A DNA stretch of 64,000 nt from Candidatus Multivoradales bacterium (GTDB lineage Bacteria > Acidobacteriota > Thermoanaerobaculia > Multivoradales > J023). This document shows positions 12,865 to 50,576 of the stretch, piece after piece. The position numbers were made by a program, and so were the translations under genes. Position 1 is the stretch's first letter; every line of letters begins with the position of its first letter. The stretch spans positions 3,040,001 through 3,104,000 of the forward strand of contig CBDFLE010000006.1 of the NCBI GenBank assembly GCA_965248925.1. Reading direction: 5' to 3'. Below the pieces are notes generated by a model that worked only from the letters and a program-made list of their open reading frames with translations, did no database searches and was not told the origin of the DNA.

Positions 12865-14054
12865 TGCCGCCGGCCAAGCTGTCGGTGAAGCGCCTATGGG
12901 TGCTGATGGTCACTGCTTTTGTCGACATGATCGGCTTTGCGCTGATCATGCCTTTACTGCCCTTCTACGCCACCCGTTTTGGTGCCTCGCCATCGATCAT
13001 CGGGGTATTGATCGCGGCTTTCGCCGTCGCCCAGCTGATTTCGGCGCCACTCTGGGGGAGGTTGTCAGACCGCTTCGGCCGCCGGCCGGTGCTGCTCAGC
13101 GGCCAGGCCCTGGCCGCCGGCTCGTTTCTGGTCTTCGCCGGCGCCGACTCGGTGTGGCTGCTACTGGCCAGCCGCTTTTTGCAGGGCATCGGCGGCGGCA
13201 CGATCAGCGCCGCCCAGGCCTATGTCGGCGATGCGGTTGGCCCTGAAGAGCGCGCCAAAGCCCTCGGTTGGATCACCGCCTGTAGCAGTGCCGGGGTGAT
13301 GGTGGGTCCGGCGATCGCCTCCTTGAGCATTCGCTACAGCTACGCGGCGCCGGGTTTGATCGCGGCCCTGCTGTCGGTGCTTGGCCTGCTCTTTGCCTGG
13401 CGCTGGTTGCCAGAGTCTTCGGCGCCGCGAAAAGTCGGCGCGGTGGCTCCCGAGCGCCCGTCGTTGCTGCGGGCACTTGCCGATGTGCTACGCCATCCCG
13501 GCCGGCCGGTCAACGCGCTGATCTGGATCTACGCTGCTGGCATGATGGCTTTCATGGCCCTCAACGGGGTGATGGCTCTCTATTTGGCGGCCCATTTTGG
13601 GGTCACCGAGCGCAACATCGGCTGGTATTACGTCGCTATCGGTGCGGTGGCGGTGGTGATGCGGGCGCTGGTGCTGGGAGCGGCGGTGGGGCGCTTTGGC
13701 GAGGTTCGGGTGCTGCGCATCGGCGCTCTGTTGCTGGCACTGGGTATGGTGATGGCGCCGTTCGCCACCACCCCACGGACCTTCTTGGCTGCCGCGGTGT
13801 GTATTCCCGCCGGCACCTCGCTGCTCTTTCCCTGCACCACCTCGTTGGTGTCGCGCTACTCGCCGCGGGGGGGCATGGGTCAAAGTCACGGCGTGCAGCA
13901 GGCGATGGGCGGGGTCAGCCGGATGCTTGGCCCCCTCTGGGCGACGGCGTTGTTCGAGCGCCTGGGCCACGCCGAGCCGTTCTGGATCAGCGCCGCCCTG
14001 GTGCTGGCGACAGCGTTATTCTCGCTCAAGCTGCACCCCCGTCAGTCGCAGTAG
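12864..14054 (+). CDS. MFS transporter (TetA/DHA1-like)
   Basis: Motif A GRLSDRFGRRPVL and DMIGFALIMPLLPFY; GTG at 12864 overlaps the permease stop. Confidence 0.9.
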   Translation: MPPAKLSVKRLWVLMVTAFVDMIGFALIMPLLPFYATRFGASPSIIGVLIAAFAVAQLISAPLWGRLSDRFGRRPVLLSGQALAAGSFLVFAGADSVWLLLASRFLQGIGGGTISAAQAYVGDAVGPEERAKALGWITACSSAGVMVGPAIASLSIRYSYAAPGLIAALLSVLGLLFAWRWLPESSAPRKVGAVAPERPSLLRALADVLRHPGRPVNALIWIYAAGMMAFMALNGVMALYLAAHFGVTERNIGWYYVAIGAVAVVMRALVLGAAVGRFGEVRVLRIGALLLALGMVMAPFATTPRTFLAAAVCIPAGTSLLFPCTTSLVSRYSPRGGMGQSHGVQQAMGGVSRMLGPLWATALFERLGHAEPFWISAALVLATALFSLKLHPRQSQ

Positions 14055-14112
14055 GGTGCAGTAGGCGAGAAACGAGATGAGTAGCGAGAGTGAGGGTCAG
14101 GGTCAGAAACTG

Positions 14113-14140
14113 AAAAAGCCAGGCGGTGAGGCCTGGCTTT
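14113..14140. terminator. Intrinsic terminator between the converging MFS gene and tRNA
   Basis: AAAAAGCCAGGC-GGTGAG-GCCTGGCTTT hairpin with A and T tracts on either side. Confidence 0.8.
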
Positions 14141-14152
14141 GAAAAGTCGGGT

Positions 14153-14229
<77 letters not shown>

Positions 14230-14389
14230 TCCGTTGTCCCGAAAGAAGCCTTACGGCTCCTTCCTCAAGGGTTGCGCAGGATTCCACAGTTGCGGAGGGT
14301 TGTCAACTAGGATTTTTGCCGGCGTTCGAATTGGTCCAAACTAGGGTCCTGCGCGTTGACCTCTGGAGCTTTGCCGGCAATGCGGATAA

Positions 14390-16104
<1,715 letters not shown>

Positions 16105-16177
16105 TCTGGCGCGACCGCCGGGCCAGCGTCGAACCTCGGTTCTAGGCATCACCTTCGGGTTCTTGCCTTTGAACACC

Positions 16178-16206
16178 TTGACGAGATAAATAGAGAGCGT
16201 TATTGT
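16178..16206 (+). promoter_or_regulatory. Putative sigma70 promoter of the accessory cassette
   Basis: TTGACG-17 bp-TATTGT in an AT-rich stretch. Confidence 0.65.
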
Positions 16207-16228
16207 GCAAAAACAATTAGCAGTATTT

Positions 16229-16260
16229 GAATTTGAACAAGTCAGAATTTGAACAAGTCA
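16229..16260. repeat. Perfect 16-bp tandem repeat GAATTTGAACAAGTCA x2
   Basis: Copies at 16229-16244 and 16245-16260, just upstream of the RBS of the Cys-rich peptide gene. Confidence 0.9.
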
Positions 16261-16273
16261 ACGTGAGGACAAC

Positions 16274-16567
16274 GTGTATTCAGGACCAATCTTTCGACTT
16301 CTTTTCACTGCGCTGTGTGTCTTGGTGTTGCTCCTGCCGGCGTCAAGAGTGAAGAGTGCTGAAAGTGACTGTAAGTATTGTCACGAATTTGTGGATATTG
16401 GCGAGTGCATCGGAGTTCAGGACCCTTCTCCGGGCTTAGATACCCTTAGTAACTGTCGGGGGACGCGACTGTGCTACCGCTACTGGATTGTCTTGCCGGA
16501 TGGAACTACTGAGTATGTAGTCTTCTGCCGTCCCTATTGCTTCGGTGATCTGTGCCTTTGGGTCTGA
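16274..16567 (+). CDS. Small secreted cysteine-rich protein (hypothetical)
   Basis: GAGGA RBS then GTG; signal peptide ending VKSA; 8 Cys in the 68-aa mature part including CKYCH; ends CFGDLCLWV. Confidence 0.75.
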   Translation: MYSGPIFRLLFTALCVLVLLLPASRVKSAESDCKYCHEFVDIGECIGVQDPSPGLDTLSNCRGTRLCYRYWIVLPDGTTEYVVFCRPYCFGDLCLWV

Positions 16568-16571
16568 ATCC

Positions 16572-18791
16572 GTGCCGCATACCCTCGCAAGTGTCGAGCC
16601 GGCCCGCGTAGGAGTTTGCAGAACAGCAGTCACCGTTCTAGGACTTCTGGGCTCCGCCTTGGCTCTTTTCGCAACACCTTCCCCCGCAGCTGCCGATCTG
16701 AGGGTCCGTTTCGTGTCGGCTAGCCCTGTGGGCTGTACCGGAGTTGGGATCTTGCGGTCGGGCGAGATCGAATTCGAAGTTACGGTTCCGGGGTCAATTC
16801 ACCTCACCGAACACGCCGAAACGCTCTCTTTGAGCGTCGCGGGTTGTTGGTCGCCAGCAACGCAGATCGATGCACAAGCCCGTGAGGTGGTGGTGATGGT
16901 ATGGCCGGCTGGCAGCGTCGGTGGCAACCTTGGTCGACCCGGTGAGCCTGCGGACTTTGACAGCATTTCGGTGCGCTGGGGCATTGTCGGGGAGGCAACG
17001 GATCTTGCCGAGCTTCCCCATGCGGGAATGACCAAGTGTTCTTTGGCCGTTAGCGACTGGAGTTGTCCGATTCCTGCCGGTCGTTGGGATCTTCGCGTCC
17101 AAGCTCCGGGCAAAGCGCCGGCCTTCTTCTGGGATGTCGCGGTGAAAGCGCAGCGTCATCACGATCTCGGCTCGCTAGAACTCGACGAGGGCTCGCGGCT
17201 ATCCGGGATGATCATGGTGGAGAAAGGGAGCGTCGCCGGGGTCGAGCTGATGCTGGAGCCAGACTTCGAGGTTCGTGGAGAGAAGGGGCGGCGCCGGTTC
17301 GATTTGCAGACTTCGACCAGCTGGTCCAATGATGCCGGGGCCTTTCTCTTCTCTGACCTGGCCTCCGGCGCCTACACGTTGCGGGTCAAGGGCCCGCCTG
17401 GGCTCTCCTCGCGCGAAATTCCGGGGCTCGACGTCGTCAGCTCACACCCCTTGCATCTCAAGCCGATCTTGCTGACCAGGAAAGGCTGGCTGGAAGTGGA
17501 GGTTTCGCCGGAGGTTGATCCGCGGCTCCTGCCGTGGACAGTGCAGCTTAGCATTCAAGACACCCGCGGCTCGACCTCTCGGCCGCTGAGAAAGGCCCGA
17601 ACCGCGAGCGGCTACTTCAACTTCACAGATCTCGACGATGGCCTCTACCGGGTGCTGGTTCTCGATGTCGAAGGCCAAGAGATGGCCACTCAGCTGGTTG
17701 AGATCAAGGCCGGCCGCGACAGCTTCGCCCAGTTCGAGTTCGACTTCGTGGCGGTTGAGGGTAGGGTCAGTGCCGGTGGCGAAGGTGTTGCCGGAACCTT
17801 GATTCTGACTTCCCCCACAGCCAACGGTGCCGGTGGGAAGCTGGAGTTCAAGACCGCCGAGGACGGGAGGTTCGCCGGCAACCTGCCGCTGCCTGGTGAG
17901 TGGCGGGGGCATTTCGAGACCCGCGGCCAACGGCTGACCGTCTTGGAGCCGATCATAGTCGAGCGCCAACTTTCCAGACCAACTCGGATCGACATCGTCC
18001 TCCCCGGTGGGCGAATCGAGGGCGAGGTGCTCGACGACGAGAGAAAGGCGCCTGAGCGGGCAATCGTGACAGTTCTGCAAGGTGGCCGAGTGCTCTCGCA
18101 AACGCGAGTGGGGCCCGAGGGGACTTTTCGCTTTCTCGGTCTGCCACCAGGCAAGCTGAGCGTAGTTTGCGACGCTGCGGACTCCCGCGGCGCCGGACCA
18201 GTATCTCTCGAGGTTAAAGCAAGCGAGTTGTCCAAGATCGAACTCGAGCTGGAAAAATGGCGGCGAGTGCGAGTGCGGTTGGTGACCGAGGGCCGTCCGG
18301 CCAGCGGGGCCTCCGTGGTGGTCCACGATCCCCGATTTGGCGGTTCGCAGACCCTGCGGGCAGGCTTGTCCGGAGAGGTCGAGACCCTCTTGCCGCCAGG
18401 ACGACAAGAGATAGGCATCTTCGTGCGAGCCGGTCGGCTGCCCCGAACAATGCGCACCGTGTCTTTCGGCAATGCGGTCGAAACGGTCACCGTGGAGCTA
18501 GGGCGGACCAGCGGTCAGCTGGTGATTCCCCTACGGCGCGACACCATGTCGCAAACGCTGAGTCATGCTGGAGCGACCTTTCGTGTCGGCGAACTGTTTT
18601 CGCCGGGATTCGGCTCAGTTGTCGAGGAGATCGACGATGCGACCCATTCGTTTCGGCTCTTGGTGGAGAGTGGCGAGTATGAACTCTGTCGGCAAGCGGA
18701 AGAGAGGGTCTGCCGCTCTGTCTATTTGGCGCCGAATTCCCAGGTTGAGTTGGCGCTTCCCTATCTGGAGAAACACGAGAACGGGAAGTAG
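16572..18791 (+). CDS. Large secreted protein with carboxypeptidase-regulatory-like beta-sandwich repeats
   Basis: Signal-like TVLGLLGSALALFATPSPAAA; repeats such as SNDAGAFLFSDLASGAYTLRV, GYFNFTDLDDGLYRV and GPEGTFRFLGLPPG; start uncertain (16545 or 16572). Confidence 0.8.
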   Translation: MPHTLASVEPARVGVCRTAVTVLGLLGSALALFATPSPAAADLRVRFVSASPVGCTGVGILRSGEIEFEVTVPGSIHLTEHAETLSLSVAGCWSPATQIDAQAREVVVMVWPAGSVGGNLGRPGEPADFDSISVRWGIVGEATDLAELPHAGMTKCSLAVSDWSCPIPAGRWDLRVQAPGKAPAFFWDVAVKAQRHHDLGSLELDEGSRLSGMIMVEKGSVAGVELMLEPDFEVRGEKGRRRFDLQTSTSWSNDAGAFLFSDLASGAYTLRVKGPPGLSSREIPGLDVVSSHPLHLKPILLTRKGWLEVEVSPEVDPRLLPWTVQLSIQDTRGSTSRPLRKARTASGYFNFTDLDDGLYRVLVLDVEGQEMATQLVEIKAGRDSFAQFEFDFVAVEGRVSAGGEGVAGTLILTSPTANGAGGKLEFKTAEDGRFAGNLPLPGEWRGHFETRGQRLTVLEPIIVERQLSRPTRIDIVLPGGRIEGEVLDDERKAPERAIVTVLQGGRVLSQTRVGPEGTFRFLGLPPGKLSVVCDAADSRGAGPVSLEVKASELSKIELELEKWRRVRVRLVTEGRPASGASVVVHDPRFGGSQTLRAGLSGEVETLLPPGRQEIGIFVRAGRLPRTMRTVSFGNAVETVTVELGRTSGQLVIPLRRDTMSQTLSHAGATFRVGELFSPGFGSVVEEIDDATHSFRLLVESGEYELCRQAEERVCRSVYLAPNSQVELALPYLEKHENGK

Positions 18792-18843
18792 GGTGCGGAC
18801 GTCAAGTGCATACCAGAAGATATTGGCGCATACCGGAGGTCGA

Positions 18844-19335
18844 ATGATAACGGTCAAGAGAGCCCTCTTCTTTTTGATTCTCATCATTTTGTCCCCGGCG
18901 ACTCTGGCTGGGGAAGCAGATGCTGAGGTCGCCATACCCTCGGGATGGCTTGGGCTTGGTATCACCTGCGAGTGCGGCGCAACGAGCGGCGAGAGCTTTC
19001 TCTTGATCCACGGTACGGCGCCAGGCGGGCCGGCTGCCGAGGCGGATCTCGAAACTGGAGACGTCGTTCTGAAAGTCGATGGCAAGTCAGTAGGTTGTCA
19101 GAGGCAACTCGATGTACTCGAGCTCTTTCGAGAACTACGAGGGGGTCAGCGGGTGAACCTATCGATTCTCCGTCTTGGGGAGCAAAGGGAGGTCGAAGTC
19201 GGGGCGATTCCGATGCCTGCTCTGCTCGCAAAGATGTGGATCGAGCAATACCGCCGAGTGGCGGTGGATCCCACAGACTGTGGGCAGGCACCGAGTTCTG
19301 GCGCCTCCAAGCCGAGTTCCGACTCCAAACGGTGA
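18844..19335 (+). CDS. Secreted stand-alone PDZ-domain protein
   Basis: GGAGG RBS then ATG at 18844; signal peptide ending ATLA; GWLGLGI loop and PGGPAAEADLETGDVVLKVDG. Confidence 0.85.
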   Translation: MITVKRALFFLILIILSPATLAGEADAEVAIPSGWLGLGITCECGATSGESFLLIHGTAPGGPAAEADLETGDVVLKVDGKSVGCQRQLDVLELFRELRGGQRVNLSILRLGEQREVEVGAIPMPALLAKMWIEQYRRVAVDPTDCGQAPSSGASKPSSDSKR

Positions 19336-19545
19336 GGCATTTTCGGGCCTAGCAGCGGTGGTGTCGCCACCCTCTCGATACGATTAGCACTCGGTCGGAA
19401 AAAACCCCTAGAGTCAGACCGAGGGGAGTGCATATCTAACGGGGTCTGCTGAACGTCTTCAACCCAGATCGACCGCCGACCGTATTCGGGCGCTCTGTCT
19501 GCTACGCCTCGCCAGGCCCACTGCCCTAGGTTAGACTCCTCCGCC

Positions 19546-22500
19546 ATGTCTGAAGCCAGCGTCTGGGAGACGCATGCCCGCGCTTTACGTCTCAGTGTGC
19601 CTTTTGTCCAGCTCGAGCGGGCGCTGCGTTCACGCAGCGACGCTGGTGCCAGCGTTGCCGTCTCGCGCTTGCCGGTAGCGGCGGCGGCCTGGGTTACCGA
19701 GCTACTCGCCGAACGCCTCGGGCGCCCGGTCTTGGTGCTGGTGCCCCACGATAGCCAAGCCTATTCTTGGCTTGAGGCGGCGCGGCTCTTTGGTCGCGGT
19801 CGAGTGACCTATTTCCCGGCGCCGTCGTTGAGCCCCTATCAAGAGGCGGAGATCTCATTGCTGGTGCGAGCCGAGGAGTCGGTGGCTCTGGCGCAGTTGG
19901 CCGCAGGCTCGGTACGCACCGTGGTGGCGACGCCGCGAGCGTTGTTCCGTCGATTGCCACCCCTGCGCCAGTTGCGACCCGCGGCGGTGGAGATCGAGGC
20001 GGGTGAGGAGATTCTGCTCGACGAGTTGATCGCTCACCTGCTGCGTTTCGGTTACCGGCGGACCGACTTGGTGATGGAGGTTGGTGAGCTGGCGTTACGG
20101 GGTGGGGTGTTGGATGTTTTTCCGCCGGGTGAGGTCGGGCCAGTACGGTTGGACCTCTTTGGCGACACGGTCGACGTCCTGCTGCGCTTCGATGTCGACT
20201 CTCAGCGTTCGGGCGACACCTTGGAGCGGGTTCGGCTGCTGCCCTTATCGCTGTTTGGCCGTGGTGAGCAGGATGCGCTGAGTCTGGCCGATCGCTTGGC
20301 CGAGCAAGTGGGGGTGGAGCATGGCGCGGACGCGGCGCACAAGCTCGGTGCGCTGCGCAGCCAGGGAGGGTTCGACGGTTGGGAGCATTACCTGCCGGCG
20401 CTGGCGCCGGAGACGGTTGGCCTGGCGCAGTTGATTGGCAACCCGCTGGTGGTGGCTTTCGATCCGCAGGGATTGGCGACCGAGGCCAACCACCATGCCG
20501 AGATCCTCAGTCGTGATTACACTGCGCGACTCGAGGAGGAGCGCCTAGTGTTGCCCCCCGAGGCGTTGGAGCTGCCCGCGGATGAGGTGGCACGGGCTCT
20601 GGACGGCGCGGCGGTTGAAATCGCTGACCTCTTCGACCGCCAGCGCGGCACGACAATCGACTTTGCTGGCAGCCAGACGGAGGAGATGCGCGACCAGCTG
20701 CAGCGCTTCGCGCGTGAGGTCGAGACCTTGCACGCCGGTTCCCAGCGGGTGGTGCTGGTCACCGCGGCGAGCCAGCGGGTGGCGTTGGGGGAGCTGCTCG
20801 AAGGTGCCGAGGTAACGCTGGGCAGTGCCGGTGTCGAGCTGGTCTCGGGAGATTTGCAACGCGGCTTCCGTTTGCCGGCGGCGAAGTTGGCGCTGTTTGG
20901 CGAACGGCAGCTATTTCGCCACCGTCAAGTGGTGCGACCAGCACGGCCCAAGCGGCGCTACGGCCCATTCATCTCCTCCCTGCGTGATCTCAAGGTGGGC
21001 GACTACGTGGTCCACGCGGATCACGGCATCGGTCAGTTCACGGGTTTGCGCACCATGGGTGAGGAGGGGCGGCGCTCCGACCTGCCTCCCGAATTGGCTG
21101 CCGCCGTGACCAGCGGCACGGTAGCCACCGAGGTGATGGAGCTGGCCTACGCCAACGGCAAGCGGCTAATGATGCCCCTGTCGCGCCTCGATCAGGTGCA
21201 GAAGTACAGTGGCATCGAGAGCATCGTGCCGCGGCTCGACAAACTCGGCGGCACTTCCTGGGCCAAGACCAAGAAGCGGATTCATCGCGGGGTTCGCGAT
21301 ATGGCTAAGGAGCTGCTTAAGCTCTATGCCGAGCGGCAGATGGCGAAGGCGCCGCCGATGACCGAGGACAGCGATCTGACACGCCAGTTCGGTGCCGCCT
21401 TCGAACACGTCGAGACCCCCGATCAGTTGGATGCTATCAAGGCGATCAAGAAAGACCTGCAATCGAGCCGGCCGATGGACCGCCTGCTGTGTGGTGATGT
21501 TGGTTTTGGCAAGACGGAGGTCGCCATGCGCGCCGCATTCCAGGTGGTGGCCAGCAACTACCAGGTGGCGGTATTGGCGCCGACCACAATTCTCGCCGAT
21601 CAGCACTTGCAGACCTTCCGCCGTCGTTTTGCCGACTTTCCGGTGCGGGTCGAAATGGTGTCGCGTTTCCGCAGCAAGGCGCGGGTCAAGGAGATCTCCG
21701 ATCGCCTGGCCCAAGGTGAAGTCGACATCTTGATCGGCACCCACCGGCTACTCAGCAAGGATCTCGACTTCGCCCGTCTGGGGATGCTGATCATCGACGA
21801 GGAGCAGCGCTTCGGGGTGGCGCAAAAGGAGCGCTTGAAGAAGCTGCGCAAAGATGTCCATGTGTTGGCGATGAGCGCGACGCCGGTGCCGCGAACTTTG
21901 CAGTTGTCGTTGGCGGGAGTCCGTGACCTGTCGTTGATCGAGACTCCGCCCCGCAACCGGATGGCGGTAGAGACCGCCATTCTGCCTTTCGACCCGGTGT
22001 TGATTCGCGAGGCGGTGGAGCTCGAGATCGAGCGCGGAGGCCAGGTCTATTACGTCTATAACCGGGTCGAGACCATCGAGCAGATGGCCGAATTCCTGAA
22101 ACAGACGGTGCCAGGATTGAAGGTTACGGTCGGTCACGGGCAACTCAACGAGGGGGAGTTGGCGCGGCGCATGCATGCATTCGTCGACGGCGAATACCAC
22201 CTGTTGCTCGCCACCACCATTATCGAGAACGGCATCGACATTCCTAACGTGAACACCATGATCGTCCATCGCGCCGACCGTTTCGGCCTGTCGCAGCTCT
22301 ACCAGCTGCGCGGCCGGGTGGGGCGTAGTGACCAGCTGGCCTACTGCTATCTGCTAGTTCCTGGGGATACCATCTTGACCGAAGTGGCGCGCAAGCGGCT
22401 CGACGCGATCCGCGAATTCACCGAACTCGGCGCCGGCTTTCGGGTGGCGGGACGAGATCTCGAGATCCGCGGTGCTGGGAACCTGCTCGGCGCCGAGCAG

Positions 22501-49743: not shown

Positions 49744-50532
49744 TCAGATGTCGTCGTGGTGATTTTCCATCTCGTGCAGGCGATCTTCTAACTCTAGTTC
49801 AATTCGCGCTTCGAGTTCTCGGAGTCGTTCCTGGAGTTCGCCCATCCGCTCTTCGAGGCCGCTGGCTTCGACTTCTTTGAAGTACCGCAGCCGCTCGCCG
49901 AGATTCTGCTCTTCGAGGGCTCGGCTAGCTTCGCTCATCGCCTTCTCCATCAGCTCTCTGCTGACTTCTATATTCGGCAGAGCGCGAACAGTTTCCAGGC
50001 GCTCGAAAATCCCACTCATGTCGAGGGCCAAGGGGTGCCCCGAGCGTTCGGCCAGCTCGGCGCTAGTGCTGTCGGCACGGCCCTCGCGGACGTAGGCTAT
50101 CTCGACGTTGTCACCGCCTTGTTTGCGGCGGATCAGTCGGGCTAGGCCCGAAGATGACTTCACCGGCTCACCGTCCACGGCGGTGATCACGTCGCCGACC
50201 CGTAGACCCGCACGCTCGGCGGCAGAGTCTGACTGCACTTTGCCGACCAGCAAGCCGGAATCCTCAGGGGCCTTGAAGAAAGTGCGCAGCTCGGCGGTCA
50301 TCGAAGTGGTTTCGACGCCCAGGAAACCGCCGCCGGTAAGGCTGCGCAGCAGGTACTTGGCGCAATCCGCTTCGTCACCATCACATTGCACTTGCAGTTG
50401 TTGGGGGAATAGGAGTTCGAACCTGGTTGCTTCGTCATCGTCGTCGGCCCAGGCCAGGGTGGGAAGGAGCAGGCTTAGAGCCAACAAGATCAACCAGGGG
50501 TGGATGCTGGAAGGTTGGGCTTGGATTCTCAT
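49744..50532 (-). CDS. Secreted PDZ-domain protein with C-terminal coiled coil
   Basis: Signal peptide ending AWA, GFLGVE and DSAAERAGLRVGDVITAVDG; no protease domain. Confidence 0.85.
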   Translation of the reverse strand: MRIQAQPSSIHPWLILLALSLLLPTLAWADDDDEATRFELLFPQQLQVQCDGDEADCAKYLLRSLTGGGFLGVETTSMTAELRTFFKAPEDSGLLVGKVQSDSAAERAGLRVGDVITAVDGEPVKSSSGLARLIRRKQGGDNVEIAYVREGRADSTSAELAERSGHPLALDMSGIFERLETVRALPNIEVSRELMEKAMSEASRALEEQNLGERLRYFKEVEASGLEERMGELQERLRELEARIELELEDRLHEMENHHDDI

Positions 50533-50576
50533 TTGTGATTCTCCGCGGCGGTTAGTGGGTGTTCTCTCACCCCGTT

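Follow-up and report, generated by a model that had tools for sequence, protein, structure and literature searches.

The present analysis describes a three-gene cassette within a 64,000-nucleotide stretch of DNA (the window) from a Candidatus Multivoradales genome of the phylum Acidobacteriota (contig CBDFLE010000006.1, positions 3,040,001 to 3,104,000 of the forward strand). This cassette is a self-contained, horizontally movable unit belonging to a large, undescribed family of modules of this Acidobacteriota lineage, with numerous diverged copies among related bacteria of soil type. The larger family is made up of pairs, each joining a cysteine-rich peptide with a chain of beta-sandwich domains, and a subset of these pairs is accompanied by a PDZ partner. 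In the window the cassette occupies positions 16274-19335 of the plus strand, where the open reading frame (ORF) listing gives three real genes, all co-oriented:

16274..16567, plus strand: Cys-rich mini-protein gene, 97 aa, GTG start
16545..18791, plus strand: beta-sandwich large-protein gene, 748 aa
18844..19335, plus strand: PDZ-protein gene, 163 aa, within an ORF spanning 18565-19335, with a plausible ATG at 18844 (MITVKR...)

The first 23 nt of the large gene are also the last 23 nt of the mini-protein gene, and the start of the PDZ protein at 18844 was picked as the ATG that yields a hydrophobic N-terminus.

Recurrence and insertion of the cassette

The case for a module is carried by the recurrence of the three genes together. 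Relatives of the large protein were found in 34 of 41 related genomes and at nine places in the own genome, and a census covered 53 large genes (600 aa or longer) from 29 genomes, taken from 46 retrieved loci and five regions of the own genome; left out were three fragments of a broken own-genome copy, fragments below 600 aa, an incomplete ORF on the opposite strand in L028 and loci that repeated a place already counted. A strict detector, which called a same-strand ORF no more than 400 nt away with a K/R-plus-hydrophobic N-terminus and at least six mature Cys, was positive at 35 unique loci; its background came to 121 calls over the 7.98 Mb of the own genome (0.0076 per kb per strand). With a relaxed detector (same strand, signal-like N-terminus, at least five Cys, within 1 kb) and PDZ genes recognized by an iterated profile, an adjacent Cys-rich ORF of exported type was present at 40 of the 53 large genes, a PDZ gene at 18 and both at 17. 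Counted per genome (n=29), the peptide/large pair occurs in 24, a PDZ locus in 13 and the full trio in 12, so that homologues of the three genes do co-occur elsewhere, and the three are linked well beyond chance.

The trios occur in different flanks and in two gene orders. The two large proteins closest to that of the window (L002 and L003, 53% identity) have a Cys-rich gene ahead and a PDZ gene behind within unrelated flanks, both partner genes are also present at L004, where the large protein is 30% identical, and at L018 and L039 the PDZ gene comes second, after the peptide gene and ahead of the large gene. Among 300 additional genomes sampled from the phylum, full-length large proteins came mainly from the same order, and were also present in three genomes of the same class and one of another class; a complete trio was found there in L067, from another family of the class, and a pair in L065. 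The window locus matches the 47-sequence profile of the large protein at 596.8 bits (1.9e-178), and it combines the features by which the module is defined, namely an end-to-end large-protein match, both Cys pairs and an adjacent CxxC peptide and PDZ gene. No fused Cys-rich domain was seen in the 11 N-termini of peptide-less large proteins, and no fourth conserved gene was found in the neighbour survey. TPR and HTH_3/HTH_31 proteins often lie near the PDZ-less paralogous loci, whereas the window cassette is without them. Such HTH_3/HTH_31 proteins (~470-520 aa) and TPR proteins stand beside PDZ-less or peptide-less members at L057:7179-8612, L060:1367-2920, L091:2596-4068, L037 and L027, and may be regulators of these copies. 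Upstream of the L046 trio lies a second Cys-rich ORF of exported type (L046:2231-2593, 121 aa, 11 Cys), which contains a stretch, ...FDPVCG.D..TY.N.C..., that resembles a Kazal-type inhibitor motif.

In this genome the trio, as an insertion of 3.4 kb, separates ftsB from the core gene that follows it. At 18 of 22 same-family loci ftsB is followed by the mfd-like gene within ~40-220 nt, and the same adjacency is found in both genomes that carry the orthologous trio elsewhere; of the remaining four ftsB loci, one is cut by a contig end and three have other genes at the junction. At these three (L103, L104 and L107) the junction 3' of ftsB holds ORFs judged by eye to be glycosyltransferase-like and epimerase-like, so the site downstream of ftsB is variable in the family. 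The GC content at third codon positions (GC3) of the peptide, large and PDZ genes is 0.53, 0.69 and 0.62, below the 0.77 of the core genes on either side, and GC at 16150-16449 is 0.447 against ~0.62 in the surroundings, in agreement with the lower GC that the first-pass annotation had reported for the 5' part. The mini-protein gene itself has a GC of 0.507. However, the lower GC of the peptide gene partly reflects its Cys- and aromatic-rich composition; the peptide gene is also below its partner in 10 of 10 other loci. The flanks and the upstream region contain the following features:

15775..16104: DivIC/FtsB ORF, upstream flank (Pfam, 5.4e-16)
16178..16206, plus strand: promoter-like site TTGACG-17-TATTGT, from a consensus scan
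16229..16260, plus strand: perfect tandem direct repeat, 2 x 16 nt (GAATTTGAACAAGTCA)
16265..16269, plus strand: Shine-Dalgarno-like GAGGA, 4 nt 5' of the mini-protein GTG start, read from the sequence
from 19546: 1156-aa ORF, downstream flank ('mfd' is the label of the first-pass annotation)

The placement of three co-oriented genes downstream of ftsB, as proposed by that annotation, is thereby borne out by the ORFs and by the Pfam match of the upstream flank. Its further proposal of a private sigma-70 promoter did not hold, as the single promoter-like site compares with 0.7 +/- 0.8 expected in shuffles, which is chance level, and the site at 16178-16206 is no evidence for a promoter. The tandem repeat, which lies downstream of the promoter-like site and just upstream of the mini-protein gene's ribosome-binding site, could be an operator or a duplication scar. 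A Rfam scan of 13800-19800 gave a tRNA (14156-14229) and no other RNA family.

Several own-genome relatives bear marks of decay or of mobile surroundings. At C6:2616090-2619181 (L095) there is a decayed paralogous module in which the large gene is spread over three frames, with one TAG reported; an intact PDZ gene of exported type adjoins it, and no peptide ORF was detected there. A truncated large-family gene of ~489 aa at C6:2597-4170 directly follows two ORFs that look like duplicated insertion-sequence genes, an identical 80-aa ORF occurring twice. RadC-like JAB genes lie a few kb from two PDZ-less paralogous modules (L091 and L092), and an RHS-repeat ORF lies upstream of the paralogous module at L094; these neighbours suggest accessory or mobile surroundings.

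The three products

The signal-like N-termini of all three products were called by eye and with a simple hydrophobic-stretch rule. The mini-protein of 97 aa has nine Cys, eight of which follow the hydrophobic N-terminus, and its layout comprises the signal-like N-terminus, a mature part of ~68 aa with a CxxC at its own N-terminus, and the C-terminal tail ...GDLCLWV, which looks like a PDZ ligand as far as its sequence can tell. A profile of the mini-protein, run against 1.84 billion representative proteins, returned 21 matches, which divide into 16 small proteins of 81-100 aa (that of the window included) and five giant repeat proteins; among the 15 small matches other than the window's own, 14 end in Val and 12 in x-W-V. 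In an alignment of the closest subfamily (18 sequences) no member departs from the eight Cys or the terminal Val, and in 16 that Val is directly preceded by Trp; the free C-terminus is a strictly conserved hydrophobic tail of the form hydrophobic residue, Trp, Val. Orthologues are present in L002, L003 and L004, and between L002 and L003, the two closest, the ratio of nonsynonymous to synonymous substitution rates (dN/dS) is 0.074, at a dS of 1.35 that is near saturation. The small ORF is conserved on both counts, and the mini-protein gene is, by this measure, under purifying selection that is strong within the orthologous lineage. The peptide had been called variable by the first-pass annotation, but it is not variable within the orthologous lineage, and its diversity is found among old paralogues.

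In a wider comparison 41 of 42 family peptides contain CxxC, and the 24 short peptides that can be aligned share invariant C33, C36, C61 and C89, by which the peptide partners are one diverged family. The search profile matched, in the own genome, only ORFs beside large genes and one weak frame elsewhere, and, over 401 genomes of the phylum, only the own genome and one marginal match with an internal stop. No Pfam or NCBIfam match was found for the mini-protein, no match among PDB sequences at E up to 1 and no usable match in the ESM Atlas, and a word-based homologue search returned only the mini-protein itself. A degenerate DNA motif for the C-terminal tail, scanned across the genome contigs, gave 17 stretches, near a rough chance estimate; only L139 was real among them, and its peptide is letter-for-letter the same as that of L004.

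The large protein is, on its sequence and its predicted structure, a non-enzymatic chain of beta-sandwich domains. CarboxypepD_reg (PF13620) matches it in Pfam at 82.5 bits, above the cut-off of 32.3, in four stretches, and SdrD_B is matched as well; profile-profile comparison resolves five repeats, at ~214-310, 315-401, 399-480, 486-572 and 571-655. Ahead of these CarboxypepD_reg/transthyretin-like repeats (~214-655) lies a distinct N-terminal region (~52-213), and behind them a C-terminal domain (~656-748). Two Cys in the N-terminal region (TKCSLAVSDWSCP, C165/C174) are both invariant in 47 relatives and are a predicted disulfide pair; in ELCRQAEERVC, C715 is invariant and C723 is kept in at least 90% of the same profile, the other invariant columns of which are Met1, Gly, Trp and Phe, and no conserved catalytic-type residues were found in it. 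An AF2 model from the 47-row alignment is all-beta, with a mean predicted local distance difference test score (pLDDT) of 87.7 and a predicted template-modelling score (pTM) of 0.78. Foldseek matched it only with beta-sandwich chains, among them B. anthracis TIE, the GhpA neck, pilins, Cna B repeats and CD109, with E down to 1.7e-11 and whole-chain template-modelling scores (TM-scores) of only 0.06-0.14, while VIA-align matched single transthyretin-like/CnaB domains with Z of 9-12 and up to 12.2, carboxypeptidase D domain II giving a Z of 12.0 and a root-mean-square deviation of 1.6 over 80 residues; the fold searches barely probed the end domains 52-213 and 656-748. The best PDB sequence match for the profile of 47 large proteins is NOMO2 (3.8e-17). 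A word-based search with the large protein gave five matches, none of them named, and the ESM Atlas gave generic CarboxypepD_reg clusters and nothing more. The dN/dS of the large protein is 0.19-0.25. Its C-terminus is ...ELALPYLEKHENGK, and the C-termini of the orthologues are not conserved. At its N-terminus stands a signal-like segment, which is also present in the orthologue P0003 (741 aa), and the public gene call P0002 (692 aa) begins the large protein at V58. It is possible that annotation of this family often hides the export signal.

The PDZ protein scores above the Pfam gathering thresholds of PDZ_2 (38.8 bits against 27), PDZ_6 (36.1 against 27) and PDZ (27.7 against 23.2), and with these scores (PF13180/PF17820/PF00595) and its carboxylate-binding loop, G-W-L-G-L-G, it is a PDZ-domain protein. 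The loop pattern [R/P]-G-x-hydrophobic-G-hydrophobic is kept in most of 17 PDZ proteins, with L018, L039 and L051 deviating. In addition to the domain, the protein has a signal-like N-terminus and a conserved, family-specific C-terminal helix, M..W...Y.R. The nearest PDZ domains are those of HtrA/DegP/DegS, C-terminal processing proteases and site-2 proteases, and the best PDB sequence matches are periplasmic serine protease DO (5.3e-12), carboxyl-terminal proteases and the aq_1964 PDZ tandems. However, the protein does not belong to the HtrA/DegP/DegS or Prc/Ctp proteases, as no protease domain was found in its 163 aa and only the PDZ part matches; in NCBIfam the scores are 34.6 bits against 422.95 for DegS, 34.5 against 416.2 for degP_htrA_DO and 26.8 against 218.6 for prc. 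Its dN/dS is 0.13-0.23. A search for related loci with the PDZ protein returned five loci that hold longer, unrelated PDZ proteins, and the module is not there. Another ORF of the window, at ~49744-50574 on the minus strand (C6:3089744-3090574), has a weak PDZ-profile match (E 1.3e-5) and is unrelated in position to the cassette.

Much of the first-pass annotation of these products has stood: the count of 97 aa and eight mature Cys agrees with the ORF translation, the carboxypeptidase-regulatory-like repeats are those matched by CarboxypepD_reg, both quoted C...C pairs of the large protein (C165/C174 and C715/C723) are present and conserved in the 47 relatives, and the CEC and two further Cys of the PDZ protein can be read directly from the sequence. 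Its view that the large protein is not a known enzyme is likewise upheld by the profile, the all-beta model and the fold matches.

Resemblance to known systems

The closest structural parallels are the CnaB/prealbumin-like stalks of adhesins and pilins (TIE 6fwv, Cna B 1d2p, SdrD 10ps/4jdz, RrgB 2y1v), which, like the large protein, are non-catalytic tandem beta-sandwiches. The parallel does not extend to the whole chain, as the low TM-scores quoted above indicate, and the large protein differs from the sortase-anchored microbial surface components recognizing adhesive matrix molecules (MSCRAMMs) and pilins in that it ends in ...LPYLEKHENGK, without LPXTG and without a hydrophobic tail or membrane anchor. 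The Gram-positive adhesins also differ in lineage, the host here being one of the Acidobacteriota, and in gene context, since the large gene is paired with genes for a Cys-rich mini-protein and a PDZ protein; Gram-positive CnaB-type adhesins are not known to have such partners. The CarboxypepD_reg repeat family is shared with NOMO, a subunit of the BOS complex (9c7v_B), and with the transthyretin-like domain of carboxypeptidase D (1qmu, 5aq0). This similarity is at the level of the domain only, because the large protein has neither a membrane anchor nor a carboxypeptidase domain, and its regions 52-213 and 656-748 are unmatched. The PDZ fold and the carboxylate-binding loop are held in common with the PDZ domains of HtrA/DegP/DegS and of C-terminal and site-2 proteases. 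Periplasmic protease PDZ domains read hydrophobic C-termini; the window protein differs from them in being stand-alone, without a protease domain and with its own C-terminal helix.

The mini-protein does not fit a ribosomally synthesised and post-translationally modified peptide (RiPP), in view of its Sec-type N-terminus and of cassette neighbours that are only the beta-sandwich and PDZ proteins, with core-gene flanks. The cassette consists of the mini-protein, beta-sandwich and PDZ genes only, as expected from the earlier statement that it holds no transporter or RiPP-modifying enzyme. With an E limit of 0.01, PADLOC-DB 2.0 (2023 library) assigned none of the three proteins to a family, and full-text literature searches turned up, by title or abstract, no description of the module. 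The suggestion that no named system fits is in keeping with the lack of a match in Pfam, NCBIfam, PADLOC and the titles and abstracts of the literature.

A proposed binding device and its alternatives

These data allow a model to be proposed in which the cassette encodes a polymorphic binding or recognition device, composed of an exported ligand, a scaffold and a PDZ adaptor held in one complex, and we give this reading of its function about an even chance of being correct. The model proposes that all three products would be exported by Sec, whereupon the mini-protein would be oxidised into a compact, disulfide-knotted domain. The large protein would bind the mini-protein as a stoichiometric partner and serve as its stalk or scaffold, while the PDZ protein may grip the free C-terminal tail of the mini-protein and act as an adaptor or chaperone for its loading, protection or docking. 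The trio together would then be a non-catalytic extracytoplasmic binding device, the binding specificity of which may differ among its numerous diverged paralogues. Such a device would most likely serve polymorphic recognition at the envelope or surface, or adhesion. A more far-reaching form of the model, which is possible but doubtful, would see in the family a hitherto unrecognised, lineage-wide class of polymorphic exported devices of two or three components, with the mini-protein as specificity or effector subunit on a beta-sandwich rod and with a tail handled by the PDZ protein.

The tails of the peptides bear on the proposed part of the PDZ protein. The 17 peptides of PDZ-bearing loci include the ends LWV, IWV, FWV, MWA, LWA, FWA, VWA and LLA, and further YIV, FVY, CPV, PPF, FAF, GPA and GDI; the median peptide length is 88 aa in PDZ-bearing loci against 117 aa in PDZ-less loci, where many peptides have long polar tails. 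A prediction of the complex between residues 24-146 of the PDZ protein (17-row alignment) and the mature peptide 30-97 (18-row alignment), in which the fold of the partner is uncertain, scored 0.42, 0.54 and 0.39, while controls with unrelated partners scored 0.37, 0.01 and 0.00, and this result counts neither way.

Several points weigh against the model. The last residue is hydrophobic in 17 of 17 peptides of PDZ-bearing loci and in 8 of 23 of PDZ-less loci, but the Fisher p of 1.3e-5 overstates this association, which is essentially one evolutionary event: in a phylogeny of 47 large proteins four changes suffice for the PDZ label, shuffled labels need 14.7 on average and none of 500 shuffles came as low, and the PDZ-less rows are essentially one clade, leaving one phylogenetically independent pair (sign test p = 1). 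The pattern is consistent with loss of the PDZ gene followed by relaxation of the constraint on the tail, as a single event. Further, the last Cys of the mini-protein lies at -4, so that three residues protrude past the disulfide core, a short stretch by the standard of canonical PDZ ligands. Members of the large family can lack either partner, as the peptide partner was undetected in 13 of the 53 large genes and an adjacent PDZ gene is absent in 35, and the background rate was measured for the strict detector only, not for the relaxed one behind the 40 of 53. Export is inferred from hydrophobic N-termini only, and since the public gene call of the large protein begins at V58, it omits the signal-like segment (16545-16716). 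In addition, contact among the three products, and with it a role in display, assembly or sensing, is something we infer.

An alternate scenario, unlikely but the best placed of the rivals, would make the mini-protein a secreted, disulfide-rich, bacteriocin-like peptide active in inter-bacterial antagonism, with the large protein as its carrier, delivery or self-protection factor and the PDZ protein as a chaperone that masks the tail until release. Such a scenario could account for the many diverged paralogous copies per genome, some of them decayed (the fragments at C6:2616586-2619181 and C6:2597-4170, and also the TAG-interrupted copies), for the insertion of the trio into a core junction with lower GC3, and for the accessory-type neighbours of the paralogues, RadC-like at two loci and RHS-repeat at one; the peptides, moreover, are small, predicted to be Sec-exported and rich in aromatics and Cys. 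However, the cassette is without a transporter, a lysis gene or a gene for a small membrane immunity protein, its flanks being ftsB and the next core gene, and a soluble beta-sandwich chain of ~750 aa is unlike known immunity proteins. Selection on the peptide within the orthologous lineage is strong and purifying rather than diversifying, and PADLOC gave no match, although this library covers phage defence and not bacteriocins.

It is also conceivable, at a clearly low probability, that the cassette serves quality control or signalling in the envelope. In that case the PDZ protein would sense hydrophobic C-termini, the Cys-rich ligand would report on redox state or folding, and the large protein would be a spacer that spans the periplasm. 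The PDZ domains of DegS and Prc sense exposed hydrophobic C-termini, and NOMO has a spacer role. In line with this idea, the PDZ domain is most like those of HtrA/DegS/DegP, C-terminal processing and site-2 proteases, the tails LWV, LWA and LLA are non-polar and so of the type bound by tail-specific PDZ domains, and the best PDB sequence match of the large protein, NOMO2, is a lumenal chain of like domains. However, no protease, kinase, anti-sigma or membrane-anchor domain was found in the three proteins by Pfam and NCBIfam, the NCBIfam HtrA/DegS models reach 34 bits against cut-offs above 400, and a housekeeping sensor would not be a patchy, multi-copy insertion.

A small redox or metal-binding protein with accessory proteins, with c-type haem attached via CXXCH or with a metal site at the CxxC, is very improbable. 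The suggestion arises from C-K/Q-Y-C-H, which directly follows the signal peptide in the window mini-protein and its two closest orthologues, and from the near-universal CxxC of the family peptides. However, His follows the second Cys in only 5 of 18 subfamily sequences, with W, S, Y, E, D or A in its place elsewhere, so that haem attachment is unlikely; the haem-binding idea was rejected, as the CXXCH of c-type cytochromes is not kept by the subfamily. The six other Cys are equally invariant, which fits the disulfides of an exported protein, and no cytochrome or metallochaperone family was matched in Pfam or NCBIfam. Finally, that the three genes are mere neighbours with no functional connection is strongly disfavoured and has the slightest probability of all, for although interaction and co-transcription are presumed, the adjacency recurs across lineages in which the large proteins are ~25% identical, in varied flanks and two gene orders, and the large and peptide genes share 23 nt where they meet.

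What is new in the proposed binding device is the gene module and the peptide family; there is nothing unusual in the beta-sandwich and PDZ folds. The abundant phylum Acidobacteriota is poorly understood, and the greater part of its exported proteome lacks annotation; the present work defines, within one order, a module that recurs in most genomes and is often found there as several diverged copies, and provides profiles for its three parts. It also raises a sharp question, namely the binding of the PDZ protein to the ...C-x-W-V tail. If the parts form a complex, the module would represent an extracytoplasmic device of a new kind, though made from familiar folds; it would assign a role to a bacterial PDZ protein that stands alone, and the compact four-disulfide mini-protein family might be useful as scaffolds. 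If the more far-reaching form of the model is true, that PDZ protein would be the first dedicated stand-alone periplasmic PDZ adaptor for a secreted mini-protein, and the module would constitute a new bacterial mechanism of cell-cell recognition or antagonism.

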